A DNA stretch of 64,000 nucleotides from an uncultured Gammaproteobacteria bacterium (GCA_965369325.1 CBDUQI010000007.1:92-64091), one strand, 5' to 3'. Positions 2,346 to 63,698 are shown, numbered from the stretch's first letter. Notes: a model not told the origin generated them from the letters alone. Numbers and translations: made by a program.

Positions 2346-4583
2346 TTACATCTCGTTGAGTTCCCGAAACAGGCTGCGCATGCCCCGCCTGAACTTCCCG
2401 GTATCGGTGGAGGAAATCACGTTCGCGTCCACTAGCTCCCTCAAAGCCATTCTGACACAGCGCATAAACGCCGCCTCTTGTAGGGTCAGCCGACGCAATA
2501 CTTCCCCATCAGACTCCGCCGAGCCCGCCTGCAGCGCACGCACTGGATCGCAGGGTATTTCCGGGAAAATGACGGTCTCTCCAGCCCTGGCGTTTAGATA
2601 TCGATTCTGCACTCCACCGGGCCATAACACATCCACCACGCCCTTCCGTCCGGTCCCCAGGCCAAAATGAGCGGTAAGGCTATTCTGGGACTGATAGCTG
2701 GAACCGCCGACTATCGGCTGCATCGCCGTACTGCCCTCTTTGGGTGTGAAACGTACAACGGCCCCGATGCCATCACGATTCACGCTGCCATCAGTGACGA
2801 GCCCGATCGTTCCGACCAAATTCACGGCAATCCAATTATTACCGTTGTTGGCATCACTGATTTCAACGGACAGTTTTCCATTAGGATAGTCAAGAAAAGC
2901 CGGTAGGAAAGTAAACTGCTCCGGCACACCCGTCTCAGCGAACACTGGGCTAATCAAAGCCTCAGGGCCAAATGCGCCGCCAAACAGCTCACCAAATGGA
3001 TTCGGTAACACCTCCGGTTCATCCGGTACGGGATTGGGAATACTGAAAGCCGCGGCGGAGACCACGTCTACAAACCCGTCATTGTTCAAATCTCCTGCGG
3101 CCAAGCCTTCTTCAACCCCCAACAAGTGACGCCTGCCGTCGTCCTCGGCCAACGCCATCGTATCGCGTGAAAAATTCCCGTCGCCATCATTTGTAAGTAC
3201 CGCTAATGGGTTGTCAGCGAATATAAACGGCCCTTGTATTCCGCCTACATACAGGATGTCAGTGTCCGCATCGTTGTCATAGTCAAACGCCACTGTGCCC
3301 CAGCCAAACGCGCTGGTGATCATGCCGGGAACCGAAGGGGCCGGATCACCGAGATCGACCGAATCAATGAAGGCCCCCTCGTCCGTTCCGAAAAACCAGC
3401 GGCTGGCGTTGGTACCCAATGCGTCCTCAGGAGGCAATCCGAGCACGGCGTCAATGATCACACTAGAATTCGCGTCTCCGAAATTGGACGCAAAATAGTC
3501 CATATGACCATCACGGTTGAAGTCCGCGAAACTCAATCCCATCCATCCCCCAGTGGTAGACTGAATCGCGTCCACGAACTCCCCGCTACCGTCATTCTTG
3601 AACAGGTGAATCAAGCCTCGGTCCAAATTGAGCTCACCAGGTGGAAAACTTAGCGGCGCTATCGCGCCCTGATCATCGGCTTCAAAAATGTCGATATTGC
3701 CATCCAGATCAAAGTCTACCATGGCAACCGCCCAGGTGATGCCAGCAGGAGCATCAGGAATGGGCACTACTTCGCCATCCACCGATATCCTCATTCCCTC
3801 CAACACATGAATACCAGATGTCTGACTTGCGTCAGCGAACTGATTCCCGCCGATGTTGATAAACAACTGATTGTGTTGATTCGAATCTATGGGTTCTAAC
3901 GCGATGGGCAACCGATTGTTCATATCGAAGGCGTTACCCACGTAGATATCCAACAATCCATCGTTGTTGACGTCGCCCATGCTTGCCGATATCGACCAGT
4001 AAGCACCGCCGCCGCTGTTGCTGCTCGCAGTGATATCCGTAAACGTACCGTCTCCGAGATTCTCAAATAGGCGATTCTCCTCGCCCGCTCCCAGGACATA
4101 CAAATCGTGATCACCGTCATTGTCGATGTCGCCGAAGACACAGCCTGAGCCATCATGATCCACCGCAGCGACATCTGCAGCCAACGCCTTGTCGAGAAAC
4201 CCGATGACGCCGTCCTCGACTAATTGATTGTGATACAGGCTATTCGCCGTACCTGGGCCGTTGGTCACGTAGATATCCAGATCACCGTCGTTGTCATAGT
4301 CCAGCAAACAAATCCCAGGAGTACCACGTGCCTTCATGGGCATATTGAAAATATCAACCGGAGAAAAAGGCCCGTCAGGGTTACTGCTCAAGAATTCGAA
4401 ATTGCTGTTCCTCGCCGAGGGAGTTCTTTCGTACGCATCTACCGCCGCATCCGAAAATGTACTAAACGTCATGCCACCGGAGACTGCATCGGTATCAGTA
4501 GAAGACGCGTAGACATTTTGCAGCGTGCAACTGCCGACAAGCATTGAGACCACGACATTCCTCACCATGGACACTCTCTTCAT
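2346..4583 (-). CDS. secreted FG-GAP/VCBS-repeat beta-propeller protein with ASPIC/UnbV C-terminal domain (CRTAC1 family)
   Basis: 745-aa ORF with an N-terminal signal-like segment. Repeated DxDxDGxxD FG-GAP motifs (DYDNDGDLDIYV, GDIDNDGDHDLYV, GDVNNDGLLDIYV, DFDLDGNIDIF, DLNNDGFVDVV). UnbV-like tail NRDGIGAVVRF...GGSSYQSQNS. GGAG RBS upstream. Confidence 0.8.
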   Translation of the reverse strand: MKRVSMVRNVVVSMLVGSCTLQNVYASSTDTDAVSGGMTFSTFSDAAVDAYERTPSARNSNFEFLSSNPDGPFSPVDIFNMPMKARGTPGICLLDYDNDGDLDIYVTNGPGTANSLYHNQLVEDGVIGFLDKALAADVAAVDHDGSGCVFGDIDNDGDHDLYVLGAGEENRLFENLGDGTFTDITASSNSGGGAYWSISASMGDVNNDGLLDIYVGNAFDMNNRLPIALEPIDSNQHNQLFINIGGNQFADASQTSGIHVLEGMRISVDGEVVPIPDAPAGITWAVAMVDFDLDGNIDIFEADDQGAIAPLSFPPGELNLDRGLIHLFKNDGSGEFVDAIQSTTGGWMGLSFADFNRDGHMDYFASNFGDANSSVIIDAVLGLPPEDALGTNASRWFFGTDEGAFIDSVDLGDPAPSVPGMITSAFGWGTVAFDYDNDADTDILYVGGIQGPFIFADNPLAVLTNDGDGNFSRDTMALAEDDGRRHLLGVEEGLAAGDLNNDGFVDVVSAAAFSIPNPVPDEPEVLPNPFGELFGGAFGPEALISPVFAETGVPEQFTFLPAFLDYPNGKLSVEISDANNGNNWIAVNLVGTIGLVTDGSVNRDGIGAVVRFTPKEGSTAMQPIVGGSSYQSQNSLTAHFGLGTGRKGVVDVLWPGGVQNRYLNARAGETVIFPEIPCDPVRALQAGSAESDGEVLRRLTLQEAAFMRCVRMALRELVDANVISSTDTGKFRRGMRSLFRELNEM

Positions 4584-4642
4584 AACAATATTCTCCTTTA
4601 TTGACCCGTTCGCTGCATACAGCGAACCCCTGTCTGAAGACC

Positions 4643-7600
4643 CTACGCGGTTTCTGCTGACTTGCTGCTACTGGTAGAGAACCTCTGATGAATGCACTGA
4701 CTAAACAGCTCCACGTCTTGTTGAGACATAAAGTGATTGCCCTCGTGCAGTATCGTTTTGGTATCAAAAGACGTCGTCAGATCGTGCCAACTTGAGACCT
4801 GCAACGGATACGTCCACAAATCCCTTTTCCCAGCAACGGCCGTGATCGGACAATCCAGCTTAGGCGCGTCGTCACATGTGTAGTTGGCCATCAACATCAG
4901 GTCCGAACGAACCAGATTTCTTAGCGGCGCTGAACGCCTCTTTCCGTCAAACGAATCAAGCAGTGGACAATCGATGACGTTCAGCAATTCGGCCAGTTTT
5001 CCATCGTCCAGCAGATGTCCGTTCGGCGCCGTGTAAAGCGTCGGACTGACGACCCCCGATACCACCATAAACTCCGGCTCCGAGTATCCGTCGAGTTTAA
5101 GCCGCTTTGCCAATTCGTACTGGATAATCCCGCCAAAACAATGTCCAAAAAAGCCGAACGGCCGGCCAATATAATCCAGTACGGACGGCAGCAGCTCCTC
5201 TACGATGTCCTGTATGTTCTCGGTACACGCCTCATCCTTTCTCAGCCCGTGCCCTGGGTATTGAACGACAGCTACTTGCCAGTGTTCGCCCATCGACAGA
5301 GGAAGGTAGGCCGGGCTCGGAGATGTTTCCCAAGCACCTGGAAAACAAAGCAATGTGTTCTTTCGAGGACTGTAACGGCTCGGCCAATGCAAGAGATTTG
5401 GATTAGTGTGCCCTGCCAGATGCCGCCGACTGTCTCGCCCGTATACAACCTGCGACGTTGCGACAGAGATGGCGCCGACCTCCGCAACTTCGAAGCGGTG
5501 CCGATGACTGGAGCTGGACGTAGACAAACCCAACGTGTGATTGATCTCGTCCAAAATGATGTCCCGGTCTGATTCGATAAAGTAATGATCGCCATCCAAC
5601 AAATTCAACCGAAACTCGCTACTCGTATAGCCACCCCATGCCCGCATTGCGCACGGCGCCGCGAACAGATCATGATTAGCCGCAAAGCCGGTGATGGGTG
5701 CTGAGAACACAACGTCGTCGGTTTTAGCTTCAGCATAGTGCGCTACAGCTTCGAAGTCCGCCCGTAACATTGGGGTCATCAGATCGAGCACTTCTTTATC
5801 TTTATGCAGTGCCCCGGCGCTAGTGAAACTGATCAGATCCAGCACTTCTAAGAACTTCTGCTCTCCCAGCGCGTACACCATCGGCGAATTGTACAAATGA
5901 GGCGCCATGCAACCGGATACAAAGACGTGATGAGGCTCAATTCCTGCTGTGAGCTTAAGTTGGGCGGCGACCTCGTACATCACGATTGCGCCCATGCAAT
6001 GGCCAAAGAAAATGACAGGCTTGTCCAGCATCGGCCCCATTGCACCCGCCACCGCTTTTTTCATCTGCTCGATACGAGTCAATGGCGACTCACCCAATCG
6101 CGCCGCGCGGCCCGGGAGGTGAACCGCGCATACTTCTATCTCGGGCGAAAGCGCCTCATGCCAATCTTGAAATACCACCGGGCCTGCGCCGGCGTAGGGG
6201 AAGCAGAACATTCGATACTTAGCGTCCGGTCTCGGATGCGGCGTCACTATCCAGGCACCCTCACGTTGCGGCTCAGTCTGTCCCGCAACGCCTTTACCGG
6301 CGGCGCCTTGTATGTCGAACGTATCGAGCATGACGTCAACAATTTTTGCCACGCTCGTGTCACGCAACAGTGTGGCAACCGGCAGGCTTACACCAAAACG
6401 ATCCAGTTTCGCTTTTAACTCCACAGCCATCAGCGAGTCCATTCCAAGGCTGGTAAGTGCTTGCTCAGGCAGCAAACGATTGGCGTCAAATCCGAATAAC
6501 TTTGATAGTATTTCCTGCACTTCCGCGATAGCTACCTCTTTAACTTCATCTTCCGGCAACGAGTCGAATTTCTCGCGCAGCCCCTGCTCCTCGGCACTTT
6601 GGCTGGACGCCTGCCCCTGCGCCTGAGCATCAGCCAGGTCGCCAAAGCGTGTTGTGGCCCCCGCAGGGTTAAACCGCAGCCACTTCTCCCAATCAATTGG
6701 CGAGATAGTGATCTGCGTGTCGCCGTCACACAATGCCATACCCATCAACTCGAGACCGTCGCGGGAATGCAGTGCGCGCAAGCCGTTTTCCTCAAGACTA
6801 CGTCGATAGAAGTCTTCATCGGCGGCCATGCCCACATCAGCAATGACGCCCCAATTTACCGACAACGCTGGCTGGCCGTTCGCCTTGCGAAAATGCGCCA
6901 AGCTATCCATGAACCCGTTAGCTGCGGCGTAGTTACCGGACCCTTGATTTCCTAACGTCGTTGCCACTGAGGAGAACAACACGAAACACTCAAGATCCCA
7001 ACGTTGCGACAATTCGTGGAGATTCAACGATCCACGGATTTTTGTGGCCGCCACTCGTTCAAATTTCTGCATGTCTTGCTTCAACAGTAAGGCATCATCC
7101 AAAACGCCCGCCGCATGAAAAACGCCTCGGACCGGGACATCCGGATTTACCGAATTGATGATTGTTTCGACATCGGCGCGGTCCGAGATATCGGCCTTAA
7201 TGACGGTGACTTGCGCTCCCATCGTCTCCAGATCCTTCACCAGCCGTTGCGCTGCAGGGCTGGTCGCGCCGCTACGCCCCAGCAAAGACAAATGTCGACA
7301 GCCTCGCTCAACCAACCAGCGCGCCAGCGAGGATCCAAACCCACCAAGGCCGCCGGTGATCAGATAGCTTGCGTCGCTTTGGAATACCGGAGCCGTTGGC
7401 GCATTCACTTCAAGCTGATCTGCCTCTGCGAAAGAAACAACAAGTTTTCCCATATGCCCGCCGGACAACATCGACTTAAACGCCGCCTGCGCCTGATTCG
7501 CCGGATAGCAAGTCGACTTAAGTGGCTGCAGGTCACCACTGCTGTACAAATCATGAATGCGCGCTAGCATCGCGCCGCAATACCCAGGCCGTTGTTGGAG

Positions 7601-10600
7601 CATGCGGTCAAGGTCCACCGCAAAAAACGAGAGATTGTAGTGGAACGGCTTCATCCCAATTGGTTTATTACGATTGATATCCATTTTGCCAATCTCAACA
7701 AAACGTCCATAGTCACGCAGTAAAGACAAACTCAGATCGATTAACGGGCCCGCCAATGAGTTCAAAACAACATCAACACCTTCCTCGTCAGTATCCGCCA
7801 GTATGTCCTGTGCGAAACTTGGCGAGCGCGAATCATAAATATGCTCTACCCCGAGACTTTGAAGAAACGATCGTTTCTCATCGTTGCTCGCGGTCGCGTA
7901 AACTTCGGCACCGACCCATTGTGCGAGTTGGATCGCTGCTTGGCCGACGCCCCCTGCCGCTGCGTGTATTAGCACGCGGTCACCCTTAGATAAACGAGCC
8001 AGGTCAACCAGACCGTAATAGGCGGTCATGAACACCATTGGCATAGCCGCGGCCTCCTCGTCTCCCAATGAGGAGATGGGCACCACCAGTGAATCAACGG
8101 TGACTGTGTGCGATCGTAGGCTGTGTGGCGCGAGCGCCATCACCCTATTGCCCACAGAAAGATCACGCACTTGGGATCCGTGGGCGAGCACAACGCCTGC
8201 GCATTCCATCCCCAAGGTATCTCCACTCCAAAGATTCTCCTCCATCAGATCGATGGGAAACAACCCGCTAGCCTTCAACACGTCCTTGAAGTTGAGGGAG
8301 GCGTGACTTACTTTGATCAACACCTCATTAGGCCCTGGCAATGGCAGCGGCATTGGCACGTAACACAGACTGTCGAGATGGCCGGATTCCCGAAATTCCA
8401 TAGAGAAGGCTCGCCCGTCAGCCAATGTTGCAACTGCAGAGCTTTTCCCTTCCCGACGTATCAGACGCCGAACATAGCGTCGTCCATCGCGAAGAGTTAC
8501 TTCCTCCTCATCTGCGCCGGGCGCTATCTCACGGTAGATATCATCCAAGTCGTCTGCGGAGATACGCTCCCCCAGATCGATGATCTTGCTCGCGAGCTCT
8601 GGATGCTCGTTACCCAGCACTCGAACAAGGCCGAACAGTGGGGATTGAGCAAGGTGAATATTCGAAGTGTTGTCACACTCAGATGCCTCACAGGTAAGAA
8701 TACGCAACGCGGCCGGCATCTTAGAAAGGCTTGAAAGACTCTGCAATAGATACACAACACTGCCAAACCCGTCACTCTGACGGGACATAACCTGTTCGAC
8801 ATCAAGCGCGTCACCGCGTGGTGCGTCGAATGCAAAACCGTGCACAACATTGTGAATTTCCACCCCCGCTGCGGCGAGATCCTGCACCAATTGCTGGTAA
8901 TGCTCCCGGCAAGACGGATCAACTTGGTAGAGGCTTTCACCCAGTTTTTTATACGTATTAGCCTTTTTTACCTCTACCAGTTTTTGCTCACGGTCCCGAA
9001 AAGCGGTGCTAATCCACTCGCTCTGTTCATTGGTGAGAACCAACCAGACCTGATCTTTGTCGACTTCGCGCGTGGGAATATCTTCCAACTGCCAATCAAA
9101 ACTGTACAGCCACTGCGCAGCATGTTTCTGGAGGTTTTCACTTGAGTAGTCAATCGCCTCGCAACGCAACTGTCGAATATCTAGAATTGGAAGGCCGTCG
9201 TCGCCATACAACATGACGTTCGCGGTGAACGAATGCTCACCCTTTTTGGTGATACGGGCGTGACTCCAACAGTCCATGGACTGCGGTTTGTTCACCAGCC
9301 GGCAGCTTTTGATACTTACCGGCAGATATGCCTGGTCACGCATATCCGCATCTTCCGCGGTCAGCGAAAGAGCGCCGAAGATGCAATGCAAGCTGGCATC
9401 CAGCCAAGCCGGATGGAAGTTGTAGCCGTCGCCATCGCCGTCGGCGCCGTCAGTTTCGAACGGCGTGATGCGCGCCAGGCATTCGTCCACGCCTTGGTGC
9501 ATTTTGATGATGCGTTGAAAGTCTTTCCCGTAGTGAAATCCGATATGCCCGAACAGTTCATACAGGTAGTCGACCGGCAGTTCCCTAGTACAGCGCGCAA
9601 GAATCGCCTCGATATCCGCGCAGGCGCACAGGCGTGTGGCTTGCTTTCGTACATGGCCTTGACAATGTCGGTCCCAACCGCTCTGGCTCTCTGATAACGA
9701 GCTAATCGCGAAGGAATTGTCGGCATCTATGGCGAACTGCAGACTCACTGCATCGGTGGGTGGCACGAACAACGCTTTGCTCAAACGTAGGTTTTCAACA
9801 ACGCAATGCTCTTTGTCCCAATCGACATCGACCGCTGCGCAAGCCATTTCGATATAGCCGGCGCCGGGAAACACCACCTCGCCCTGAATTTTGTGATCCC
9901 TCAAGTATGGGTATCGGTCCAGATCAATGGTCTGATTCCATACGGTGTTAGCCAATTGCAGCCTTGCACCCAACAACGGATGTGTCTTCCCTTTGGCGGC
10001 CACCAGCGTTTGCATGGCATAACCCTTACGAACACTGGCCGCATCCTCAGACTCTGCCCAGCACGATATCGGTTGCCATGGGTAGTTGGGCAGATTGAGT
10101 AACTTGCCTTCGGGATAGATACTTTTCCAATCAACATCTGTCCCGTGCTGATAAAGATTGGACAGATTACGCAGCAGATTCTTTCTTTCCTGCTGCTCGC
10201 GCCGCAAACTATGCGCTTGCGGCGCCGTCTTGCCCACCGCCTCCAGGCACTCTCGAATAGCACCCGACAGAACAGGATGCGGACCCACCTCCAGGATGGG
10301 TGGCAACTCAGTGGCTTCCTCGCGCAGGCACCAATTCATCAACGCCTTGGCGAAATACACGGGCTGTCTGACATTTCTCCACCAATACTCGGCATGCAAC
10401 TGTGGTCCATCAAGCTCACCGCCCGTCACTGTAGAGATGTACGGAATCTGTGAATTCTTAGGCGTCAAGGTGGCCAGGGACGCGAGTAAATCCTCTTGTA
10501 GAGGATCCATCTTCGAGCTGTGATAGGGCACCTCTACGATGAGAGGACGATTGAATATCTCTTTGTTCTCCAGCTTTCTGGCAATCACGCCTAGCACCTC

Positions 10601-12721: not shown

Positions 12722-12801
12722 CTTTCTTCCTTGGCGTAACCGCCGAGAATGGGGCTGATTCTTAAGGTCGCAACGGAAACCTGAAGAGACAATTTGTTCA
12801 T

Positions 12802-13605
12802 CTAAATATTTAGATGCCTAATTTCCTTGGCGGGCCAATCCTTGTGATATTTTGTGTACACTTTTTCATCTTCCAGGCGCTCGTAGTCTTTTACCGGTGC
12901 ACTCCAGTTGTTAATACTGTGGTGTCTGTTGTGGTAAATGATCCCGTTGAGCAATACCCTGCCCCACAAAAATCGCATCGCCGGCAGTACATGGCGCATA
13001 TCTTCTGCGCGCTCATAAACACCAAAGTCCGAATCGGCACGAAAACTTGATCGATGGGTGTAATAATTGAAAAAGAAAATTGCGATTGCCCGGATGAACC
13101 TTTGTGAAAGCACGTGTATCCAGTAGATCGCTCCAAAGAACACCAGGTGTACGGACAACATCGTGACGTTGATGAGAATGCTGGTGATCAGTTGCCGATT
13201 CATGCCTTTTTCCCGGTAATACTGATAACCGTTGTATTCGCTCTCAAACACGTTCCACACCAAGGCACTAAGACAATGACCGTTGTAGTAGGGGAGCCAC
13301 GGATCTGTGTACGTCCCGAAGTAGCGATGGTGTCTGTTGTGCGTATTGCGAAACGCGAGCAGCCCCCCCCAAATGGGATCCGCTACTAATGGATGCCGAG
13401 ACGTAAACCAAATGTCCTTCAAGGGGGCGCCGTGACTCAGATCGTGGATGTGCAAGTAGATCGCCGGGTAGAATATGATGTTGCACAAGACCAGCACATA
13501 CCACGGCAACCAGCCGCAGGCGAAAGCGATAAAGACAAAATATAAAAACGCGCTTCTCAGAAGTACGCCAAGATTCAGAAAAAATCCCTCTCTTGCCTTT
13601 ATCAC
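12802..13605 (-). CDS. membrane fatty-acid desaturase/hydroxylase family protein (three His boxes)
   Basis: ORF 12802..13623. His boxes HDLSHG, HNRHH and HNRHH; several TM segments. Start moved to the in-frame GTG at 13605, 7 nt after GGAGG. There is no ATG upstream of the first His box. Confidence 0.75.
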   Translation of the reverse strand: MIKAREGFFLNLGVLLRSAFLYFVFIAFACGWLPWYVLVLCNIIFYPAIYLHIHDLSHGAPLKDIWFTSRHPLVADPIWGGLLAFRNTHNRHHRYFGTYTDPWLPYYNGHCLSALVWNVFESEYNGYQYYREKGMNRQLITSILINVTMLSVHLVFFGAIYWIHVLSQRFIRAIAIFFFNYYTHRSSFRADSDFGVYERAEDMRHVLPAMRFLWGRVLLNGIIYHNRHHSINNWSAPVKDYERLEDEKVYTKYHKDWPAKEIRHLNI

Positions 13606-13663
13606 TCCGCCACCTCCGAGCAATTACTTAACAGCAATGGACGCTACGGAAGCTGCCTGGCGA

Positions 13664-15037
13664 TCACCTGACTTCCGCCAGGGGTAAACCACTAGGCACT
13701 CTCGTAGGTACGGTTTTGCGCAAATCCTGTGCTGATGGATCAGTAAGGGCGTTAAGGAAATCGAGTAAATCCACAACCTGGTCGTCAGTCAGGTTCATTG
13801 ATGGCAACTCGATTGCATCGGAGATTGCCTGAGTTATTTCATCATTGTTAAACGCGATCAAATCCATCGCGTCCAGGTCAGGGCGCGGCGGCATAACGAT
13901 CTGTGACGGATCGGCGTTCGCCAAGGCTTGCTGAGGATTCAGGTGATGCCGAACCACCGCCTCCAAGGAATTGTAGAACCCATCGTGCCCCCATGGACCG
14001 GTCAAAGCGGTATTGCGCAACGACGGTGTGCGGAACTTGTATCTGTCGGCACTATCGCCGGTAAAATCTTCACGCCCGAAGTCTTCAACACCTTCTATGC
14101 CGTTGCCAAAACCGGGCCCCACCTGCGGAATGCCAATTGCGTAAAATTTGTGATCCGTCTGGAACAACCCACTATGGCAGGCGCTGCACTGTGCTTCGCC
14201 ATAGAACAAGCGCATTCCCCGCTTGGCGCTGCGACTCATGGCGCTCCTGTCACCACGTAACAACCGATCGAACGGGCTGTTATCCGACCGAAAAGCCGTC
14301 CCCTGAAACGCTGCCAGCGCTTCGCCAAGCTGAACGATATCCATTTGATCGGGATCAAGGGCCACATCCGGAAAGGCTGCGGTGAACAACTCAACGTACT
14401 CAGGAATCGCCCGCATCCGCTCGACCAGCGATTCCCAAACAGGAACATGTGGACCGCCAGCGCCCGCATCGGCCATCTCATTGGTACCCGGCTGCCCCAA
14501 CATCTCCTGCGTATCGGTCTGAGCGAAAATTGATAGCGCGGCGAGTGGACTGCTGAATCCTAGTGGTAAGTTTTCACCTGCGGGTGTATCGAAGCCCTGG
14601 GGAATCTGCTCGTTGACCTGAATCCGGCCGTCCCAGAACAGCGTCATAAACTCCCGATGGCCAAGGTTAAACAGCGGGGTCATGTTGCGAGCACCTCTGG
14701 CCTGTGGGTCCAGACTGCTCGGCGGAAAGTTGCCGGCGTTGCGCTGTACGCTAAGGCCCTCGGCCCCGGTACCGATATTCGTAGACAAACCATCGACGGT
14801 GCCGATTAACGGCGAATGACAGGTGGCACAGGAAATATCTCGGTTGCCACTCAGTTCCTTATCAAAGAACAACATTTGCCCCAAGGCCACCATTTCCTGC
14901 GATGGTTGAATGAAATCGTCGTCCATAGCGGCCAGCGGCAGCAATTGACCCAATCCAGCATCGTCATCCGCCACAACCGGTGCGGACACAACAAATGCAC
15001 AACTGATGACGAGCGCCAACCAATATCGTTTACGCAT
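13664..15037 (-). CDS. periplasmic di-haem cytochrome c peroxidase / MauG family protein
   Basis: 457-aa ORF with a signal peptide (MRKRYWLALVISCAFVVSAPVVA) and two CxxCH motifs (CATCH, CSACH). CCP-like core GPWGHDGF. Confidence 0.85.
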   Translation of the reverse strand: MRKRYWLALVISCAFVVSAPVVADDDAGLGQLLPLAAMDDDFIQPSQEMVALGQMLFFDKELSGNRDISCATCHSPLIGTVDGLSTNIGTGAEGLSVQRNAGNFPPSSLDPQARGARNMTPLFNLGHREFMTLFWDGRIQVNEQIPQGFDTPAGENLPLGFSSPLAALSIFAQTDTQEMLGQPGTNEMADAGAGGPHVPVWESLVERMRAIPEYVELFTAAFPDVALDPDQMDIVQLGEALAAFQGTAFRSDNSPFDRLLRGDRSAMSRSAKRGMRLFYGEAQCSACHSGLFQTDHKFYAIGIPQVGPGFGNGIEGVEDFGREDFTGDSADRYKFRTPSLRNTALTGPWGHDGFYNSLEAVVRHHLNPQQALANADPSQIVMPPRPDLDAMDLIAFNNDEITQAISDAIELPSMNLTDDQVVDLLDFLNALTDPSAQDLRKTVPTRVPSGLPLAEVR

Positions 15038-15200
15038 AACCCGACTCCTCTGCGAGGTACTAAATATATTCAGTCAATACCGATACGTAGCACGGCGATT
15101 GGCCGGGCTCGTGGTGGGGGAAAAATCAGGGTACGTTGCGCCTTAGGCGCGCAGCGTAAACCCGAAATAGCCTGCGAATCGCGGATGCGGCACCGCAGGC

Positions 15201-15236
15201 GATGTACGTACTGCGCTAACTGGCAGTACGTACATC
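15201..15236. terminator. perfect 14-bp stem-loop 12 nt downstream of the 15248 gene stop (attenuator/terminator or RNA-stability element)
   Basis: GATGTACGTACTGC (15201-15214), 8-nt loop, GCAGTACGTACATC (15223-15236). No U-tract follows on the minus strand, so it is not a canonical intrinsic terminator. A second imperfect palindrome (GCGCCTTAGGCGC) lies near 15137-15152. Confidence 0.3.
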
Positions 15237-15247
15237 ACGTGATGTTC

Positions 15248-15871
15248 CTATTCGGTGAAGCAGAGCTGGCCCTCTTCGACAGCAAAATCGGCAACCCGAT
15301 TTTCCGGATCGTCACACCCGTTTACTGTGCCTTTCCAAACGATACTGCCAGACTCAATATTTCTGAATGCACCGGTTCCGATTGAAGTATCGAACAACAT
15401 TTGCTCCGTCGCCTCCGCGAACTGCGGATTGCCGTTATCGTCGGGGCAACTGCCGACGTCGATAGTAAACAAGCCCTCGTTGGAGGTTATGCTGCCGATT
15501 CGATCTCGGGTACCCAGAATATGTCGAGTAACAAAGCCCCCAGCCGCCTCGTCAAATGGATGCCCCAGCAACGCACCGGCCAGAATTGTCCGCTCGCCAT
15601 CTTTGGAAATCACCATCCTGTATCGACCTATCTCCCTATCGCTGTTCAGGCCGTCGATCTCAAAGACAGCGCGTGACACCTCATAACGCCCTCTCAACAC
15701 GTCGTAACAACCACTAAATACACTTTCCCCATGATCTAATGAGCTCGTCGAGTCTTTGAGGCTTGCCTGGTCCGGCACATTTGCGGCTTGGTCCGCCGAC
15801 GCCGCCCCTGCCAGAACAACGGACAAACACATGACGACAGACAACACCTTTTTATTCAAAACGTTAGACAC
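15248..15871 (-). CDS. exported protein of unknown function (first gene after the MerR-type promoter)
   Basis: ORF 15248..15892. Start moved to the in-frame GTG 15871, 8 nt after GGAGG, giving a signal peptide MSNVLNKKVLSVVMCLSVVLAGAASA. No family recognised. Confidence 0.6.
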   Translation of the reverse strand: MSNVLNKKVLSVVMCLSVVLAGAASADQAANVPDQASLKDSTSSLDHGESVFSGCYDVLRGRYEVSRAVFEIDGLNSDREIGRYRMVISKDGERTILAGALLGHPFDEAAGGFVTRHILGTRDRIGSITSNEGLFTIDVGSCPDDNGNPQFAEATEQMLFDTSIGTGAFRNIESGSIVWKGTVNGCDDPENRVADFAVEEGQLCFTE

Positions 15872-15961
15872 ATCGATTCCCTCCGCTAACACGTAATTTG
15901 GGGTACAACCACCATCATGATGGTGTACCTTTAGGTATGGTATGGAACGTAACTCAGTGCT

Positions 15962-15992
15962 ACTCTACAACTTAAAGCATACATTATGTCAA
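15962..15992 (-). promoter_or_regulatory. MerR-type promoter, 19-bp spacer, firing toward the PKS operon (site 1)
   Basis: Minus-strand read: TTGACA (complement of 15987-15992), 19-nt spacer TAATGTATGCTTTAAGTTG, TAGAGT (complement of 15962-15967). 27 of 32 nt are identical to site 2 at 21996-22026. Overlaps the 5' end of the divergent regulator gene, as in mer/sox loci. Confidence 0.6.
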
Positions 15993-16423
15993 GTAATATT
16001 ATGACCGACTTTACGATTGGCGAAGTCTCCAAGCGCTCGGGCCTAAGCGCCTCCGCAATCAGGTATTACGAAGCCGAAAGCATCGTGCCTAAGCCTGCCC
16101 GCAGAAACGGACGGCGGATTTACGATGAAGATTGGATGAACCGGTTGGGCATCGTATTAATCGCGCAAGAGGCAGGGTTCTCACTAAAGGAAATACGGAA
16201 TTTGACACGGCAACTTGGCAACTCAGGATCGTCTAGTTCCGAGCAGTTGCAGCACGCTGCCCGGTGTCAATTGCAAACATTGAACGATCGCAAAGTACGA
16301 ATACAACAAATGGAGCAATTGTTAGAAGGTTTGCTACATTGCCATTGTCACAGCCTCGACAAATGCGGTCAGATTGCATTAAGACTGGTGTCGCCTACAG
16401 GCGGAAAAACTACCGCCTCCTAG
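15986..16423 (+). CDS. MerR-family transcriptional regulator, SoxR-like
   Basis: N-terminal HTH FTIGEVSKRSGLSASAIRYYEAESIV...GRRIY, coiled-coil dimerisation helix, C-terminal HCHCHSLDKC cluster. The true start may be ATG 16001 (MTDFTIGE...), since 15986 overlaps the -35 of the divergent promoter. Confidence 0.85.
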   Translation: MSSNIMTDFTIGEVSKRSGLSASAIRYYEAESIVPKPARRNGRRIYDEDWMNRLGIVLIAQEAGFSLKEIRNLTRQLGNSGSSSSEQLQHAARCQLQTLNDRKVRIQQMEQLLEGLLHCHCHSLDKCGQIALRLVSPTGGKTTAS

Positions 16424-16492
16424 CTCACAGCCTACTGTCGTAACGTTAACCAGGTGGGCCCTTCCGGCTTTCGCCCCATCAAGCTACTGCCC

Positions 16493-17689
16493 TCAGAAAT
16501 ATCGGGTTACCCGTATCTGCAGATAATCATCGCTTTCAAAAGAATACTGTGCCGAACTCTCCTCAGCCCCGCTAAACATACGCAGCCTCAACCCTGCGGT
16601 TATGCTCTCGCCAATACGACGCTCTGCTTCCAGATTGTAGAACCGCTCCGAATTGCGGCGGTCAAAAATCAGCCCCGCAAGAATATTGGTGTCTTGAGTA
16701 TCGTTTAAGGTCAATCTGCTGCCAACAAACACGTCATCATCGAAAGTCGTCGGTGGATCGTGCAAATTGCGGTCATCGTACAAGTACTCCATCAGAAAAC
16801 CGAAATCGGCATTCGAGTTCATCAGTTGATATCGCGTGTATTCAAATCCCGCGACCGCAGCAAAGAACGAGCTATTACCACCGGTTGCGACCAGGCTCTC
16901 CAACTTCCACAGCCATGCCGCCCCGGTGTACTGCAAATCCAGTCCCCATTGCCGCATCTGAGTATAGATAGGTATCAACTTGTCCCGGCCCCGGTTTAGC
17001 GTAAACCCCGGCTCCCTGCTGGTGCCGTCAAAGTAATACAGACCCACGTCAGCGCTGCCAAAATAATGGCTGTAACGTACGGCGAAATCCGTATGTTTTT
17101 GTTTGGCTGCCGATTCAAACCTGGCGCGGTCATCGTCCACTACCAACGAAGCTCTAAATCGCCCGTCTTGGCCACCAAACGTACGTTCGCGAAAATAGGG
17201 CAACACATAGAAGTCCAGCTTGCCCCAATCACGTTGCAAGCTGAGGTTAACCATTGGCTGACCCAACTTGTCCTCCTGATCCGGGTCCTCAACCAAATCG
17301 GTCTGATTGATGACGTCGATCAAATGACGGGATTCCGCCACGCCCCAGAACACCTTGTTGACACCCACAAGCAATTCCCAGCCGCCGCCCTCGTAGGCCC
17401 AGTAAGCTTCACGAAGATCAGGGTGTGTGCGCTGGGAATCTACCTCGTCAATCCGCAGAAATGGTTGGATACTGATCCGATGTTTTTCATCCTCGCTGCG
17501 CCAGCGCCATTCAAAATTAAGCAATGCGGAGAACTGTGCATCATCCACTTGTTTCCTAAAATTGGGGGACTCTAGAAAAAAGCGCGACTCTAATCCAGTG
17601 TCCAAAGACAATTTCCACTCGCCGGCCCACCCTGACTGAGGTAGGACTAGCAACCCGAGTGTGAACAAGTGGAAAAACGACAATCGCAT
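16493..17689 (-). CDS. putative outer-membrane beta-barrel protein (unknown family)
   Basis: 398 aa. Signal peptide MRLSFFHLFTLGLLVLPQSGWA, alternating-pattern sequence, C-terminal ...IRVTRYF (aromatic terminal residue typical of OM barrels). Its start overlaps the upstream stop (TGATG). Confidence 0.6.
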   Translation of the reverse strand: MRLSFFHLFTLGLLVLPQSGWAGEWKLSLDTGLESRFFLESPNFRKQVDDAQFSALLNFEWRWRSEDEKHRISIQPFLRIDEVDSQRTHPDLREAYWAYEGGGWELLVGVNKVFWGVAESRHLIDVINQTDLVEDPDQEDKLGQPMVNLSLQRDWGKLDFYVLPYFRERTFGGQDGRFRASLVVDDDRARFESAAKQKHTDFAVRYSHYFGSADVGLYYFDGTSREPGFTLNRGRDKLIPIYTQMRQWGLDLQYTGAAWLWKLESLVATGGNSSFFAAVAGFEYTRYQLMNSNADFGFLMEYLYDDRNLHDPPTTFDDDVFVGSRLTLNDTQDTNILAGLIFDRRNSERFYNLEAERRIGESITAGLRLRMFSGAEESSAQYSFESDDYLQIRVTRYF

Positions 17690-18501
17690 CAGCGCAGGCT
17701 ACGCAACCTTCCTTTTACGAAATCCTGATCCTTCAAACCAACGGAAAACTGGTAGTCACCGTAAAACAGGTCTGTGCTTTTATCAGTCTGATGATTCACC
17801 ATTCTCAGCGTTTGCGCCCGCCAGATCCCATCGTAGTTTTGATATTCCTCTAACGTGAGGGTTTTCAATAAATCACCGCGTCGATCGTAGAATTCAATTT
17901 TCCGAATTTGGAAAACCTGCTGATCAATCCAGACCAACTGTCGGGCGTAGCCGGAGCTCTCATACCTGGGTAGCCGCTCAAGCACATCGTAGATCACGCC
18001 ATCGTCGCCGTTCTCTGCACGCAGGTATTTGTAGGTGTACTTATTCAACTCCTGGGATGTAAAATCTTCAAACGCAAACTCCGACCCCACAAATGGACCG
18101 GATTTGTTGGCCGACGCGATACGTTTAACTCTTTTCAGGGCCGGCAGAAATAGCCACTGATCATCCGGCTCCAGGATTTTCGCATGGGACAGCAATGCGG
18201 TGCCTTCGATATCCCTCGGACTCTTAAACACCACCAGACTTTTGTCACCAAAAGCCTCATCTGCGACTTCCAATGTCGTAACACGCAGCTGGCGGGTGCT
18301 CTCCTGTCCGGCCGCGTTGCGCAGAATCATCTTCAGGGTGACTTTGCTATCGCCAAAGCCGCGATCAGATCGGTCCGCTCGGGCCGCAACGTCCAAGCCC
18401 TTCTGATCGGCATCTTGCGCTTGTGCGCTCACCGTCAAACCTAGCGCGCACAACAATACCGCACTACATACAACGTTGTTGGTAAGTGAATTAATAGACA
18501 A
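17689..18501 (-). CDS. LolA-like periplasmic protein (outer membrane lipoprotein-sorting protein family)
   Basis: 270 aa with a signal peptide. Family-like motif QWLFLPALKRVKRIASANKSGPFVGSEFAFEDF. TTG start after GGAG. Confidence 0.75.
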   Translation of the reverse strand: MSINSLTNNVVCSAVLLCALGLTVSAQAQDADQKGLDVAARADRSDRGFGDSKVTLKMILRNAAGQESTRQLRVTTLEVADEAFGDKSLVVFKSPRDIEGTALLSHAKILEPDDQWLFLPALKRVKRIASANKSGPFVGSEFAFEDFTSQELNKYTYKYLRAENGDDGVIYDVLERLPRYESSGYARQLVWIDQQVFQIRKIEFYDRRGDLLKTLTLEEYQNYDGIWRAQTLRMVNHQTDKSTDLFYGDYQFSVGLKDQDFVKGRLRSLR

Positions 18502-18563
18502 AGAATTCTCCGAAGTATTTCACGCCGAATTTTGAGCAACCTCAGCTAAGCCAATTTGTATAA

Positions 18564-20930
18564 TCAGGATGCCTCCGGTTGAGGAATTTTCCTGGCTGAA
18601 CCAACGACCAGCTTCTCTCCGCCCAAGAGCAGTAGCGCCGGCAGGAATAAAAAATCGAGTATAAGAGCGAAGATAATGGCCAGGGCCGTCAACAAACCGA
18701 GATCGGCATTCACTTTGAAACTGGACGTCACCAAGACAAGGAATCCAGAGGCCAATATGAGCGTGCTGACCATGATCGCTGTCCCTACACTGGTAAACGC
18801 GTAGCGGATAGAATCGGCCGAATCCAATCCTTTTTCGCGTCGCGCCCTCACGTATTTGGACAAAAAGTGCACCGTATCGTCTACCACGATACCTAACGAG
18901 ATAGAACCGACGATTGCGACAGAAAACCCCACCTCTCCCACCAGCAAGGCCCACGCCCCGAATGTAGCCAGAATCGGCAGCCCGTTTGGCACAAGACTTA
19001 GCAAGCCCAAAGGCCAACTGCGTAGCGCAATCACCATGATCAGTGCGATGGCTAGTATTGCAACAATTGTACCGCGAATCATGTTGCTTACGTTTCGCTC
19101 GGTAATGTATGTGAACATCACTTGTGCACTGGTCGGTTTCGCATGCATATACTCAGGCAGGTTTTGTTTGCCCCAAGCAGCCGTGTCCTGAAGAAACTTC
19201 TTGGCTTGCATTGTCGTTGAATTGTGCAGCGTTGCTGTAACTCGACTTGCCGATTTGTCAATGTTGATTCGATCATTCATATCCAGCCCGTACGGCAAAG
19301 ACATCTCGTACAACAAAAGGTATTGAGCTGACAATTCACGGTTGTCAGGAATCCGATAATACGCTGGATCATCGCCATGAAGATTCTTATTTAGTCGCTT
19401 CATCACATCGGAAATACTATATACATGCATTACCTCGGGATGGTTGCGTAGAAATTCGGCAAACTGCTCCAGTTTTTCCAAATAGAACGGTTCACTGACT
19501 GCTCCAGGGCCGGACGCGCCCACAGAAAACTCGATGGGATACATGCCGAAGTGCTTCAGTGCCCTGTCGCTGTCGGTTCGAAATTCAATACTCTCGTCAA
19601 AATAATCTACCCACTGAGTGTTATATTGAATTGAGGGAATGAATGCGATCAGCACTATCGAGGCTGCGCCAAGGCCGATCAACAACTTGTTTCTTTGGCT
19701 AATTGCGAAATCAGCAATTCGAACCATTAGGCGATGTGACCAGGATCGTCGGTGACTCACTTTTACCTTGAAGGGCAACAGGCTAACCATCGCCGGCAAT
19801 ACGGTAATGCTGTACAACCAAGCGGCCGCGATGCCTGCGGCTGTGATATTGCCCAAATGCCAAAACGGCGGAGAGTCTGAGAAGTTGAGCGCAAGAAACC
19901 CAACAATAGTCGTAATTGAAGTAATCGTGACGGGAAGAAAATTCAACCGCATCGCCTCGACGATCGCTGCGCCCTTCGCCAATCCTTCGCGCAGCGCAGC
20001 TCTGAAAGACACCAGGATATGAATCGAATCCGCAATAGCAAGTGTGAGGATTACGATAGGTGCCGAACCCGAGACGGGAGTGAGTTCGACCCCGGTAAAC
20101 CCCGCCACCCCCATTCCAACGGTAGTCGATAAGACAATGATCACCAAGGTCACGAATGTGCCACTGATGGACCTAAGAATAAGAACCGTCATGATCAAAA
20201 TGATGCCGAACATGACCGGTATTACGCTGCTAATATCGCGAATGGCGGCCTCTGAGAATGCATTGTTGAGCATCGACACACCGGTGAGCGAAATCTCCAA
20301 GTGTGGGTACTCAGCCTCAATACTATCTCTTACTTCACGGGCGGCCGCAGCGGCCTCAAACACCTCGGCCAGTCTCTCACCGGGGTACTGCAATATCACA
20401 TTGACAGCGGTTGCGTTCGCTTTAGGGGTGATAAGCTGGTTCAGTAGCAACGGCTCATCAAGCGCGATTTGTAGCTTACTCTCTAGTTCGGAACTGGATG
20501 CCGATTCAGCATTATTCACTAAATCTTCGACTATCAAGTCGTCATCTACACCTGTGGTACTTTGAAAATTGGTGAGCGAATCCACCCGAATCGCAAAGGG
20601 TATTTTCCAGGCTGAATCGGTAAGCGCCGTGATGGCAGTGAGCGTCTTGTTGCTGAACACAGTGCCGTCGTCCGGCTCCAAAACGAACAAGAAATTGTCG
20701 TTCTTAGTGTAGGTCTCCTGTACGTGCTCGAATGCCCTCAGCTCGGGATTGTCTGGTGAGAAGAAGACGCGGTAGTTGTTGGCGAATTCAAGCTTTAGTA
20801 TTCCTGCACCGACACCCGCAGCCAGGATGACGGCGCAAGCGATAACTCCCCAGCGAAATCGGATGACCCAACGAGCAAAGCCAGTTGCGAACTCGTCGAC
20901 GTTCTTAAAATACCCTGACACAACGAGCAC
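18564..20930 (-). CDS. RND-superfamily exporter of the MMPL / COG1033 type
   Basis: 788 aa with two 6-TM bundles, each preceded by a large soluble loop. SSD/MMPL-like segments (GVSMLNNAFSEAA..., VDDTVHFLSKY). GTG start. Confidence 0.85.
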   Translation of the reverse strand: MLVVSGYFKNVDEFATGFARWVIRFRWGVIACAVILAAGVGAGILKLEFANNYRVFFSPDNPELRAFEHVQETYTKNDNFLFVLEPDDGTVFSNKTLTAITALTDSAWKIPFAIRVDSLTNFQSTTGVDDDLIVEDLVNNAESASSSELESKLQIALDEPLLLNQLITPKANATAVNVILQYPGERLAEVFEAAAAAREVRDSIEAEYPHLEISLTGVSMLNNAFSEAAIRDISSVIPVMFGIILIMTVLILRSISGTFVTLVIIVLSTTVGMGVAGFTGVELTPVSGSAPIVILTLAIADSIHILVSFRAALREGLAKGAAIVEAMRLNFLPVTITSITTIVGFLALNFSDSPPFWHLGNITAAGIAAAWLYSITVLPAMVSLLPFKVKVSHRRSWSHRLMVRIADFAISQRNKLLIGLGAASIVLIAFIPSIQYNTQWVDYFDESIEFRTDSDRALKHFGMYPIEFSVGASGPGAVSEPFYLEKLEQFAEFLRNHPEVMHVYSISDVMKRLNKNLHGDDPAYYRIPDNRELSAQYLLLYEMSLPYGLDMNDRINIDKSASRVTATLHNSTTMQAKKFLQDTAAWGKQNLPEYMHAKPTSAQVMFTYITERNVSNMIRGTIVAILAIALIMVIALRSWPLGLLSLVPNGLPILATFGAWALLVGEVGFSVAIVGSISLGIVVDDTVHFLSKYVRARREKGLDSADSIRYAFTSVGTAIMVSTLILASGFLVLVTSSFKVNADLGLLTALAIIFALILDFLFLPALLLLGGEKLVVGSARKIPQPEAS

Positions 20931-21078
20931 CCCCGGAATGGTAAATCCTTGCTCAAACGCTCCATCAACGGCAGGCCCGCCTGTCGCGGCAATCCCCGCG
21001 CAGACTTTATCGCGATCGGCCCCCGTGCCATCGATCTAACACCTGTGCCGTAATGCCGCCCCAAACTCCCGATCCGAT

Positions 21079-21300
21079 TTATTCAATCGAACGACGCCAG
21101 CGTAACGCAGCCACCAATGCCCAAATACTCTCAGCAATCATAAATGGGTAAGAGCCCAACAAGAAAGCGTAGATCGCAGCCAGCAGGCAACCCAGCGCGA
21201 ATATACCCACGTAAATCGAGCCGCGAGACTCCAGAGCATAGCTGGCCACCATGATTGTGACTGCCAACAGACCGAATAGCTCAGTGGGATTACTGATCAT
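21079..21300 (-). CDS. small membrane protein (73 aa, 2-3 TM)
   Basis: Hydrophobic ORF, third gene of the operon driven by promoter site 2. No family assigned with confidence. Confidence 0.5.
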   Translation of the reverse strand: MISNPTELFGLLAVTIMVASYALESRGSIYVGIFALGCLLAAIYAFLLGSYPFMIAESIWALVAALRWRRSIE

Positions 21301-21337
21301 CGCGCACCGCCGACCCGACCAGGATGCTCAATGAACA

Positions 21338-21646
21338 CTATGTAATCGGTTTTTGCCTGCGCCACATCTTGAGCAAACGATAGCCCAGTAGCCCCAACAG
21401 CATCAATATTCCAACTAACCCGATAGCGACCCCGATCATCTCAACAATTGGCGGTGGGCTCAGCCACCTTGATGCCGCACTAAAACCGCCCAAACCGACC
21501 AATGCGAGAATGATTGGAAGTTCGCAGGCCACAATCGAAAGTACACCTATGAGCACGCCGGTAACACCGGCGCGCCGGATTTTCTTTGATGATGAACTGG
21601 GCGATGAGTTCGCATCGTGGGCGGAGCTGTTCACGGATTCACTCAT
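21338..21646 (-). CDS. small membrane protein (102 aa) with a Ser-rich N-terminus and one intramembrane Cys (VACELP)
   Basis: Two predicted TM helices. Its start overlaps the upstream stop by 4 nt (ATGA). Confidence 0.55.
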   Translation of the reverse strand: MSESVNSSAHDANSSPSSSSKKIRRAGVTGVLIGVLSIVACELPIILALVGLGGFSAASRWLSPPPIVEMIGVAIGLVGILMLLGLLGYRLLKMWRRQKPIT

Positions 21647-21963
21647 TGTACTCTACTCGTTATTGCGCTTCGGAAGATTTCGATCATATTCGCAGCCTCT
21701 GGAGGGCCTTGTATCAACAAGGACAATCCATCTGCAGGCTCGCTGATCGTGAAGGTCAGGAATCCGCAACACCCTTTTTCGGCGGATACGAACTCCTCTA
21801 CCTGTGCTCTGAGTAATTCGGAATCCTCAAACTCAACCTGAAACCCATCCGGTACGGATTGCGAGCTGAGGACCTTTGATATTACCAGTTCGCGGAGGGT
21901 CGATCGACGTTGCTTCCTCTCTTGCGACGACAACGTGCAGAAAAGTTCAGAATCATTTTGCAT
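21643..21963 (-). CDS. small cytoplasmic Cys-containing protein (CTL...GCCGFLTF motif)
   Basis: ORF 21643..21978 begins at GTG. ATG 21963 is preferred (MQNDSELFC...), 8 nt after GAGGAG. Cys9 plus the adjacent Cys pair resemble small proteins I recall next to MerR/ArsR regulators. That is a memory-based, weak recognition. Confidence 0.55.
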   Translation of the reverse strand: MQNDSELFCTLSSQERKQRRSTLRELVISKVLSSQSVPDGFQVEFEDSELLRAQVEEFVSAEKGCCGFLTFTISEPADGLSLLIQGPPEAANMIEIFRSAITSRVQ

Positions 21964-21995
21964 GCAGACACTCCTCACATAGATGGCTTACGGCC

Positions 21996-63689: not shown

Positions 63690-63698
63690 GATTTTTCC

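Follow-up and report, generated by a model that had tools for sequence, protein, structure and literature searches.

Results

Layout of the locus

We analyzed a stretch of DNA from an uncultured Gammaproteobacteria bacterium (one strand, 64,000 nt, GCA_965369325.1 CBDUQI010000007.1:92-64091; hereafter the window) that carries a type I polyketide synthase (PKS) gene close to a three-gene set, hereafter the trio, coding for a resistance-nodulation-division (RND) permease, a LolA-like protein and an outer-membrane (OM) β-barrel. An original prediction on this DNA had read the two gene blocks as a candidate system for making a polyketide lipid and carrying it across the Gram-negative envelope. All nine open reading frames (ORFs) named in it were confirmed, in coordinates and in domains, by ORF calls and profile searches.

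Operon 1 runs leftward on the minus strand. Its first gene, exp214 (15248..15892), codes for a 214-aa exported protein with a signal peptide and is followed by a gene for a di-heme CCP_MauG protein identified with Pfam (13664..15037, 457 aa; hereafter CCP), a gene for a protein with histidine boxes (His boxes) resembling those of FADS enzymes (12802..13623, 273 aa), the PKS gene with its Pfam domains (4643..12721, 2692 aa), and, as the last gene, one for a CRTAC1-like FG-GAP/VCBS β-propeller, also found with Pfam (2346..4583, 745 aa). A MerR family regulator gene (15986..16423, plus strand, 145 aa; Pfam MerR_1 and MerR-DNA-bind) separates this block from operon 2, which is again on the minus strand and contains the genes for the MMPL/HAE3-type RND permease (18564..20930, 788 aa; profile search and hydropathy), the LolA_like PF17131 protein (17689..18501; profile search) and the predicted OM β-barrel (16493..17689, 398 aa, C-terminal RVTRYF; AlphaFold2 (AF2) model and Foldseek). 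The second block had been taken to start at 20930; its three main genes stand as described, but three small co-directional ORFs lie upstream of that point (21079-21978, minus strand). These are o111 (21643..21978), a soluble domain with Cys motifs defined by tblastn and alignment, which is the first gene of operon 2; o102 (21338..21646, 102 aa), an ORF call with two transmembrane (TM) segments by hydropathy; and, between o102 and the RND gene, the small membrane ORF o73 (21079..21300, 73 aa), read from the sequence and its hydropathy.

Both blocks belong to one foreign island of ~19.7 kb (2346 to ~22030), because a low GC content at third codon positions (GC3) runs from the CRTAC1-like gene to o111. 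In twelve of the fourteen island genes (2346-21978), those for which it was measured, GC3 is 0.54-0.61, versus 0.66-0.76 in six flanking genes (abh314 and ccoNOPGI), and the CRTAC1-like gene itself, at 0.597, is of the island type. The right flank of the island is the ccoNOQP-ccoGHIS core, and its CcoN shares a 90% cluster with 'Gammaproteobacteria bacterium' proteins from metagenome-assembled genomes, in agreement with the stated origin. We found no tRNA gene at the island and no direct or inverted repeats of at least 10 nt common to both of its borders. Between the CRTAC1-like gene and the convergent α/β-hydrolase gene, a GC-rich hairpin (GGCCGCC...GGCGGCC, 2264-2346) is probably a bidirectional terminator at the left edge of the island.

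Twin predicted promoters precede the two operons

Near-identical predicted promoters lie ahead of both operons. P1 (15962..15992, minus strand) overlaps the start of the MerR gene, whose start codon falls within the predicted operator, and points to exp214; read from 15992 to 15962 it is TTGACA-N19-TAGAGT. P2 (21996..22026, minus strand) points to o111 and the RND trio, and read from 22026 to 21996 it is TTGACT-N19-TAGAGT. Of 31 positions, 27 are the same in P1 and P2, and a regular-expression search for TTGAC[AT]-N19-TAGAGT returned only these two sites in the window. A 17-nt core, ACTCTACAACTTAAAGC, occurs there exactly twice, at 15962 and 21996, for an expectation of 0.07 even with three mismatches. 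The spacer of P2 contains a perfect dyad, ACTTAAAG-N4-CTTTAAGT (22004-22023), and that of P1 contains the related ACTTAAAG-N4-CATTATGT (15970-15989) with two mismatches; the dyad is found nowhere else in the window (expected 0.04). The promoter elements (-35 box, 19-bp spacer, dyad and -10 box) are in register between the two sites, while the flanks have diverged. The standard promoter scan allows spacers of 16-18 nt and so missed these 19-nt sites, which were spotted by eye and confirmed by the regular expression.

A 19-bp spacer with an internal dyad is a hallmark of MerR-family-activated promoters. P1 would read into exp214-CCP-His-box gene-PKS-CRTAC1 and P2 into o111-o102-o73-RND-LolA-barrel, and no σ70-like promoter or terminator was predicted between o73 and the RND gene. 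Because near-identical predicted promoters with a dyad precede both, the two blocks look like one regulon under MerR-type promoters, and the MerR-family protein of the island probably regulates both through these predicted operators. In the intergenic regions of two related loci (L001 and L005, described below) an operator search gave nothing convincing, and the dyad of the window is absent from all 30 sister or related loci examined; the sister loci would therefore use other operators. The leader predicted for operon 1 contains a perfect 16-bp palindrome without strand, CACCATCATGATGGTG (15910..15925), which follows the predicted start of transcription and precedes the start codon of exp214; it may be a second operator or an RNA/leader hairpin.

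The regulator had been called SoxR-like. Its C-terminal CxCx5C places three of the four SoxR cluster cysteines in register in an alignment with SoxR (2zhg) and MerR (5crl), which agrees with that label, but the first cysteine is replaced by leucine and the NCBIfam scores show no preference for SoxR over CueR or MerR (CueR 66.7, SoxR TIGR01950 64 and MerR 55.8 bits, all under cut-off). A canonical SoxR was rejected on the incomplete Cx2CxCx5C motif and on a score of 64 bits against a cut-off of 117.

A MAS-like synthase ends in two cysteine thioesterases

Pfam gives the PKS the domain order KS-AT-DH-(pseudoKR)-ER-KR-ACP-TE-TE, with KS beginning at residue 7, and its catalytic motifs (DTACSS, HGTGT, GHSVGE, HxxxGxxxxP, HAAAGGVG, GGLGGFG, YAAAN and DSL) are all intact and kept in four orthologues. 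The top PDB match is mycocerosic acid synthase (MAS; 9d2z, 1078 bits), aligned in one colinear stretch over residues 7-1967. Domain order, motifs and this match uphold the MAS-like nature ascribed to the synthase earlier, and the protein would be a relative of MAS/Pks2, a MAS-like/FAS-like fully reducing type I synthase. Its identity as a MAS/Pks2 orthologue was rejected: the Pks2 model scores 1311 bits against an equivalog cut-off of 2400, and the AT, which combines GHSVGE with an unusual VPYHS motif, lacks the methylmalonyl-type YASH. Since the PKS consists of a single module and partner modules are present neither in the window nor in the sister loci, we infer that the module is used iteratively.

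Thioesterases (TEs) with a cysteine nucleophile are uncommon, serine being usual. In both TEs of the PKS the nucleophile position is a cysteine, C2242 in the GHCMG of TE1 and C2528 in the GHCFG of TE2. Of 21 relatives, 19 have the GHCxG motif in TE1 and 16 have it in TE2; Cys-type TEs occur in both PKS clades defined below, and TE2 carries GHDFG in two distant relatives. The ACP-TE-TE end is rare (about 18 proteins in a database of 5.8 billion), and a literature search for PKSs ending in this way found only tandem TEs of non-ribosomal peptide synthetases (NRPSs). Cysteine nucleophiles are known from the TEs of ObiF1 and SulM, which form a β-lactone and a β-lactam, respectively (PMC11298585, PMC6668435). 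In both of these, a single TE belongs to an NRPS and the flanking motifs are different (Gln-Cys-Asn in SulM), whereas the window has two tandem GHCxG TEs at the end of a PKS.

A divergent His-box protein is the constant partner of the synthase

The gene between CCP and the PKS had been described as coding for a His-box membrane desaturase. Three His boxes are invariant in a five-member alignment, HDxxH (H54/H58), HxxHH (H89/H92/H93) and HxxHH (H225/H228/H229), together with H184, and a hydropathy scan finds hydrophobic segments; the boxes and the membrane character thus stand, but the protein of the window has no Pfam match of its own. A match to PF00487, at best with an E-value of 1.7e-8, is seen in two of the five relatives, and the family has no sequence relative in the PDB, even at E=10. 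We suggest that it is a divergent FADS-like member of the membrane di-iron superfamily. The true start of the gene is probable near 13605, giving 267 aa.

The family is rare, with 5 clusters among 5.8 billion proteins, 3 loci in 185,579 species genomes and 19 metagenome loci. A candidate model for its chemistry is UndB, a FADS-like enzyme that turns free fatty acids into 1-alkenes (PMC11204201). Both are small membrane proteins with three His boxes, and free fatty acids are what a TE would release. The likeness is one of description: there is no detectable specific similarity between the two, and the protein of the window has neither a PF00487 match nor a PDB relative.

An envelope-spanning RND/LolA-like/barrel trio

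The first trio protein matches PF03176 in two stretches (4e-40), and its hydropathy is consistent with 12 TM segments and a pair of large loops. The earlier description as a 12-TM MMPL-like RND exporter holds for the MMPL domain and the topology, but not at the family level. The best NCBIfam model is HAE3 (TIGR00921, 157 bits; cut-off 352), HpnN scores 113 bits, under its cut-off, and TIGR00833 107 against 875; matches in the PDB are weak (MmpL4/5 at 46 and 33 bits, MexK and HpnN). The permease is therefore described here as HAE3-like and would not be a true MmpL (HAE2). The 270-aa LolA-like protein matches PF17131 (TP_0789-like, E=1.4e-56) and DUF1329 (1e-10) and, in the PDB, 3bk5 (3.5e-74), LolA3 (9tp6) and the DUF1329 protein 4z48. 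Its stop codon and the start codon of the barrel gene form the TGATG overlap reported at 17689, which we read in the sequence as well.

For the 398-aa signal-peptide protein ending in RVTRYF, an assignment to the OM is favored by the AF2 model, a barrel of ~18 strands (predicted local distance difference test, pLDDT, 80) that Foldseek matches with probability 1.0 to OccK/OpdQ, AlgE, OmpM1 and porins. Profiles, PDB matches and the model together agree with the envelope-spanning make-up that had been proposed for the trio. Residues ~109-145 of the barrel (NKVFWGVxESRHLxDxINQxDLVEDxDxEDKLGQPM) are the most conserved segment of the family and the sole part modeled with very low confidence (pLDDT 30-46); this segment may serve as a plug or as a constriction loop dependent on a partner or ligand.

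As to the small upstream ORFs, o111 contains FCxL ... CCG[FY]L, with CC and C motifs that are invariant in its family, and is homologous to the C-terminal half of a 227-aa protein of L001 and a 204-aa protein of L005 (tblastn 1e-9 and 1.7e-8). The o102 product has a VACELP motif and a marginal similarity to MerTP (E 0.078), and its gene overlaps o111 by ATGA.

The closest characterized counterpart is AmeABCD, from a genetic island of Castellaniella defragrans, the deletion of which lowers monoterpene tolerance and Nile Red efflux (PMC6394551). As in the window, an HAE3 RND (~787 aa), a LolA-superfamily periplasmic protein and an OM protein are co-encoded. The window, however, has no AmeC (BNR/COG4447) and no DUF1302 match in the barrel, its LolA-like protein has 270 rather than 451 aa, and AmeABCD sits with catabolic genes whereas the trio sits with biosynthetic ones. 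In Thalassolituus oleivorans, TOL_3187 (two MMPL domains together with one that is LolA-like) and TOL_3188 (domain-less, porin-like) are induced 42-fold or exclusively on the n-C28 alkane (PMC6304351). We liken them to the trio by their published architecture, and their context is alkane use, not biosynthesis. The same fusion of the RND and LolA-like proteins, 1065 aa long, occurs in the related locus L033 (4792-7989), and the two proteins would therefore work together.

Relatives of the synthase cassette and of the trio

Related loci, labeled L001 onward, were compared with the window. The PKS directly adjoins one or more His-box genes in every locus that is long enough: the window, L001-L007, L012, L013, L015, L016, L018, L019, L024-L026 and the P0128 contig. 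Because of this adjacency, the conserved functional unit would be the PKS plus the His-box enzyme, and a PKS family with a double Cys-TE and a constant His-box partner appears to be undescribed. In clade A (the window, L001/L002 and L003/L005; PKS identity 62-68%) the order is exp214-CCP-His-box gene-PKS. Clade B consists of Myxococcota, Vicinamibacterales and many soil contigs, with a GC content of 0.54-0.73, mostly at least 0.59, and the PKS is followed by two His-box genes or preceded by one. Metagenome and genome scans for further clade-A loci returned only clade-B relatives. Most clade-B soil loci have two tandem His-box paralogues after the PKS (for example, L006 8942-10774), and, in addition, the P0128 contig encodes a canonical FA_desaturase and a discrete ACP.

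Outside the cassette, the sister loci of clade A show metal-related genes. MerC-family genes (116-130 bits; NCBIfam cut-offs 140-170) stand directly before the exp214-type gene of the cassette in L001 (6465-7643) and L005 (61-5588), the MerR regulators of these loci have the Cys spacing of the mercury type (C..C-x8-C), and L005 has in addition a fragment of a heavy-metal P-type ATPase and a second metal-type MerR.

The trio has a distribution of its own. Its barrel has at least 7930 homologues, the named ones in Porticoccus, Woeseia, Xanthomonadales and Wenzhouxiangellaceae, and the RND-LolA-barrel gene order is kept in L001, L008, L009, L011 and L031-L033, which suggests an autonomous, widespread module. 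The trio of L032 is flanked by insertion sequence (IS) elements, and one JGI sample (3300082556) gave both the clade-A PKS contig L002 and a TetR-linked stand-alone trio on a 1.15-Mb contig (L031).

In L001 an orthologous cassette (56-72% identity) is divergently flanked by an operon of the 227-aa o111 homologue, RND, LolA-like protein and barrel, with one shared MerR intergenic region; the o111 homologue thus leads the trio operon of L001 as o111 does that of the window. The trio of the window is 40-47% identical to that of L001 and 55-72% identical to stand-alone trios, the closest being L008 (65-72%). Because the L001 trio is the more distant, trios would have been recruited or replaced from different lineages at least twice beside the cassette. 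This repeated recruitment, together with the twin promoters, is in our view the main evidence for a functional coupling of the two blocks.

Other products of operon 1

CCP matches PF03150 (3e-35), has a signal peptide and the heme motifs CATCH and CSACH, and resembles bacterial CCPs and MauG in the PDB, so that it is most probably a periplasmic enzyme of the bacterial di-heme CCP/MauG family. Its NCBIfam scores are all under cut-off (the MauG-like TIGR03981 258/340 bits, MbnH 148/363, MauG 144/444). Its adjacency to exp214 is kept in L001, L003 and L005 at 72-75% identity.

The exp214 protein has 207 aa when read from the start codon chosen earlier, and a mature form of ~165 aa. It has no Pfam or NCBIfam match, and its family is rare (20 representatives among 1.8e9 proteins), with four conserved cysteines, three invariant and one near-invariant, and His124. 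AF2 models residues 61-214 as an up-and-down all-β barrel with pLDDT >90. Foldseek matched this model to no PDB structure with confidence; the highest TM-score is 0.42 (PloI4), and the matches with top E-values have TM-scores of ~0.15.

Such a pair recalls MauG/preMADH and MbnH/MbnP, where a di-heme enzyme gene also adjoins the gene of a small exported protein; MbnH turns a Trp of MbnP into kynurenine, building a copper site (PMC11951088). The window differs in that CCP is under all family cut-offs and that exp214 has no conserved Trp or WxW, no MbnP match and a barrel without a close solved relative. On the missing Trp or WxW and the absence of NCBIfam and Pfam matches, MbnP was rejected as an identity for exp214.

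The CRTAC1-like protein (Pfam FG-GAP_3 2e-35, UnbV_ASPIC 4e-12) has an N-terminal signal with an LVGSC lipobox-like motif.

Comparison with known lipid export systems

The mycobacterial MAS/Pks2 systems share with the window the KS-AT-DH-ER-KR-ACP order and an RND protein with an MMPL domain encoded next to the synthase. They differ in that the window PKS has two C-terminal Cys-TEs and MAS none, in the AT (GHSVGE/VPYHS versus the methylmalonyl YASH), in the FadD ligase and Pap acyltransferase of PDIM/sulfolipid export, which the window does not have, and in the pump, which is HAE3-like rather than HAE2 and, the envelope being diderm, has a LolA-like protein and an OM barrel as partners. The MAS/MmpL analogy would thus hold for architecture, not for family membership.

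Among Gram-negative bacteria, the aryl-polyene proteins ApeL (LolA-like), ApeM (RND) and ApeN (LolB-like) have been proposed to localize an aryl-polyene lipid to the OM (PMC8253772), and a flexirubin cluster with LolA2/LolB2 to move lipid to the outer membrane (PMC11885536). These, too, are lipid clusters with their own RND and LolA-like protein. They use dissociated type II FAS-like enzymes, with acyl- or glycosyltransferases leading to a lipid anchor, and a LolB-like lipoprotein (DUF3261) as the OM partner, whereas the window has one type I megasynthase, no such transferase and a predicted ~18-strand barrel. The gene combination had been said not to match a described pathway; this combination is indeed new, but the concept has precedents in ApeL/M/N and LolA2/LolB2. 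What is new is the synthase family with a double Cys-TE and an obligate His-box partner, the pair of exp214 and a MauG-like enzyme, the barrel-containing HAE3 trio, and the promoter-level wiring of the two operons.

A proposed regulon for lipid synthesis and export, and its rivals

We favor the explanation that the island is one regulon in which a PKS-made lipid, or a toxic intermediate of its synthesis, is carried outward by the trio, and we give it a probability of roughly 0.5. The island would have been acquired horizontally, and its MerR-family protein would sense a signal and activate both leftward operons. The PKS would iteratively elongate a primer with malonyl units, with full reduction of the β-carbon, to give a long, largely saturated chain that leaves the ACP through the two Cys-TE domains and is modified by the FADS-like enzyme through desaturation, hydroxylation or UndB-like decarboxylation. 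In the periplasm, the exp214 barrel and the di-heme enzyme may bind or oxidize the lipid, or may form an enzyme-substrate pair of the MauG/MbnH type. Operon 2 would be a hydrophobe-efflux module of a common type, usually TetR-linked and here rewired under the promoter type of the cassette; the RND would take the hydrophobic product or toxic intermediate from the inner membrane and most likely pass it through the LolA-like carrier to the OM barrel. We infer the length and chemistry of the chain, the binding of the regulator to the operators, the read-through from o111 to the RND gene and the identity of the pump substrate.

The original reading of lipid synthesis plus export fits the domains, the MAS-like PKS, the make-up of the trio, the shared island and promoters, and L001, but it has to face the facts that the trio is mostly stand-alone and that the cassettes are mostly without it. 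Several observations weigh against it. Members of the trio family outnumber the cassette (about 5 to 25) by a factor of at least 300 to 1000, and all six sampled close relatives (52-65% barrel identity) are stand-alone TetR-RND-LolA-barrel sets with unrelated neighbors and no PKS. Neighborhood co-occurrence of PKS and trio, on which the original prediction depends, is seen in L001 and missing elsewhere: clade-B loci have neither trio nor exp214 nor CCP in the flanks that can be seen (reaching as far as 10 kb in L006, of the Myxococcota, and 5 kb in L012), and L003/L005 have no trio within 5.8 kb upstream and 0.8 kb downstream, which is uninformative or mildly negative. Co-occurrence therefore rests on two informative clade-A loci of three. 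No CRTAC1-like homologue was found in the sister loci (L001-L030), because of which we regard this gene as probably accessory within operon 1. The window contains no acyltransferase, ligase, glycosyltransferase or phosphopantetheinyl transferase (PPTase) to build a membrane-anchored lipid, as had already been noted, the PPTase search being a crude regular expression for an Sfp/AcpS-type motif in all frames. A 148-nt gap precedes the RND gene, so read-through from o111 is assumed. Co-regulation is no proof of a shared substrate; MerR/SoxR regulons often join pumps with unrelated redox enzymes. Finally, lipid clusters with their own RND/LolA-like transport are already known from ApeL/M/N and LolA2/LolB2, and by analogy the closest characterized counterpart of the trio, AmeABCD, is a hydrocarbon tolerance pump (PMC6394551).

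This last point leads to a rival that we consider unlikely but the one to be taken most seriously, namely that the trio is an AmeABCD-type pump giving general tolerance of hydrophobes or solvents, placed in the same stress regulon and working in parallel to the PKS without transporting its product. On one signal, redox or thiophilic-metal stress, operon 1 would remodel or produce a lipid and the trio would expel toxic hydrophobic compounds. In non-enteric bacteria, regulons of the SoxR type combine RND pumps with oxidoreductases, and the regulator here has three of the four SoxR cysteines. The nearest relatives of the trio stand alone behind TetR, an arrangement common among efflux pumps, PKS-His-box cassettes occur without the trio in many lineages, and AmeABCD does give monoterpene tolerance (PMC6394551). 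Such a pump would not easily explain why a trio of a different lineage stands beside the L001 cassette, which is hard to account for without a cassette-specific benefit, or why, in both loci, the trio operon opens with an o111 homologue specific to the cassette. In another rival, the main role of the island would be to answer a thiophilic metal, for example mercury. MerR-type sensors would turn on Cys-rich proteins of membrane and periplasm (MerC-like proteins, the o111 family, and exp214 with a MauG-like partner, a pair resembling MbnP/MbnH), and the PKS/His-box lipid and the pump would serve metal sequestration or envelope protection rather than a secreted metabolite. The MerC-family genes of the sister loci (116-130 bits), the C..C-x8-C spacing of their MerR proteins, the P-type ATPase and second metal-type MerR of L005, the invariant CC and C motifs of the o111 family and the invariant Cys and His of the exp214 family all point this way, as does the copper site that the MauG-like MbnH creates in its neighbor MbnP (PMC11951088). 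Yet the MerC matches are under the NCBIfam cut-offs (140-170 bits), MerC is missing from the window, whose regulator has a different Cys pattern, exp214 lacks the WxW of MbnP and any MbnP-family match, MerA and MerB are absent, clade-B cassettes have no metal genes, and no chemical rationale ties a saturated polyketide lipid to metal binding. For the window itself the evidence of a metal response is weak, and we hold this explanation to be improbable.

The juxtaposition might also be incidental, with two unrelated modules in one island and promoters made alike by a meaningless local duplication. The trio family is abundant and mobile, as the IS elements in L032 suggest, and the adjacency is seen in only two loci. 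A chance duplication, however, would hardly keep the promoter elements in register while the flanks diverged, the adjacency recurs in L001, where the trio is non-orthologous and the genes are differently oriented, and the composition is uniform over both blocks; we consider coincidence very improbable.

Returning to the regulon for synthesis and export, a bolder form of it, which we put forward only tentatively and judge doubtful, is that a new lipid, of the envelope or secreted, is made by an undescribed class of type I PKS in which tandem Cys-TEs go with an obligate FADS-like partner. In marine gammaproteobacteria its cassette would on two occasions have taken in an HAE3 RND-LolA-like-barrel machine and brought it under a MerR-type switch that they share. 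As products, a hydrocarbon and a strained or thioester-derived species would both be conceivable. If true, this would be the first megasynthase lipid trafficked across a diderm envelope by the trio family, and the first native substrate for a family of thousands of members. That family, found in marine Gammaproteobacteria, has no established substrate, and a co-regulated cassette would offer an experimental handle on its cargo and direction of transport. The product of the rare PKS family and the role of its two Cys-TEs are questions of enzymology in their own right, and, given the twin promoters, a single reporter pair and one regulator would suffice to test whether the two operons form a regulon.

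Another segment of unusual composition in the window

At the right end of the window, 60000-64000 has a GC content of 0.47-0.52, compared with ~0.59 elsewhere, and may be another foreign segment.

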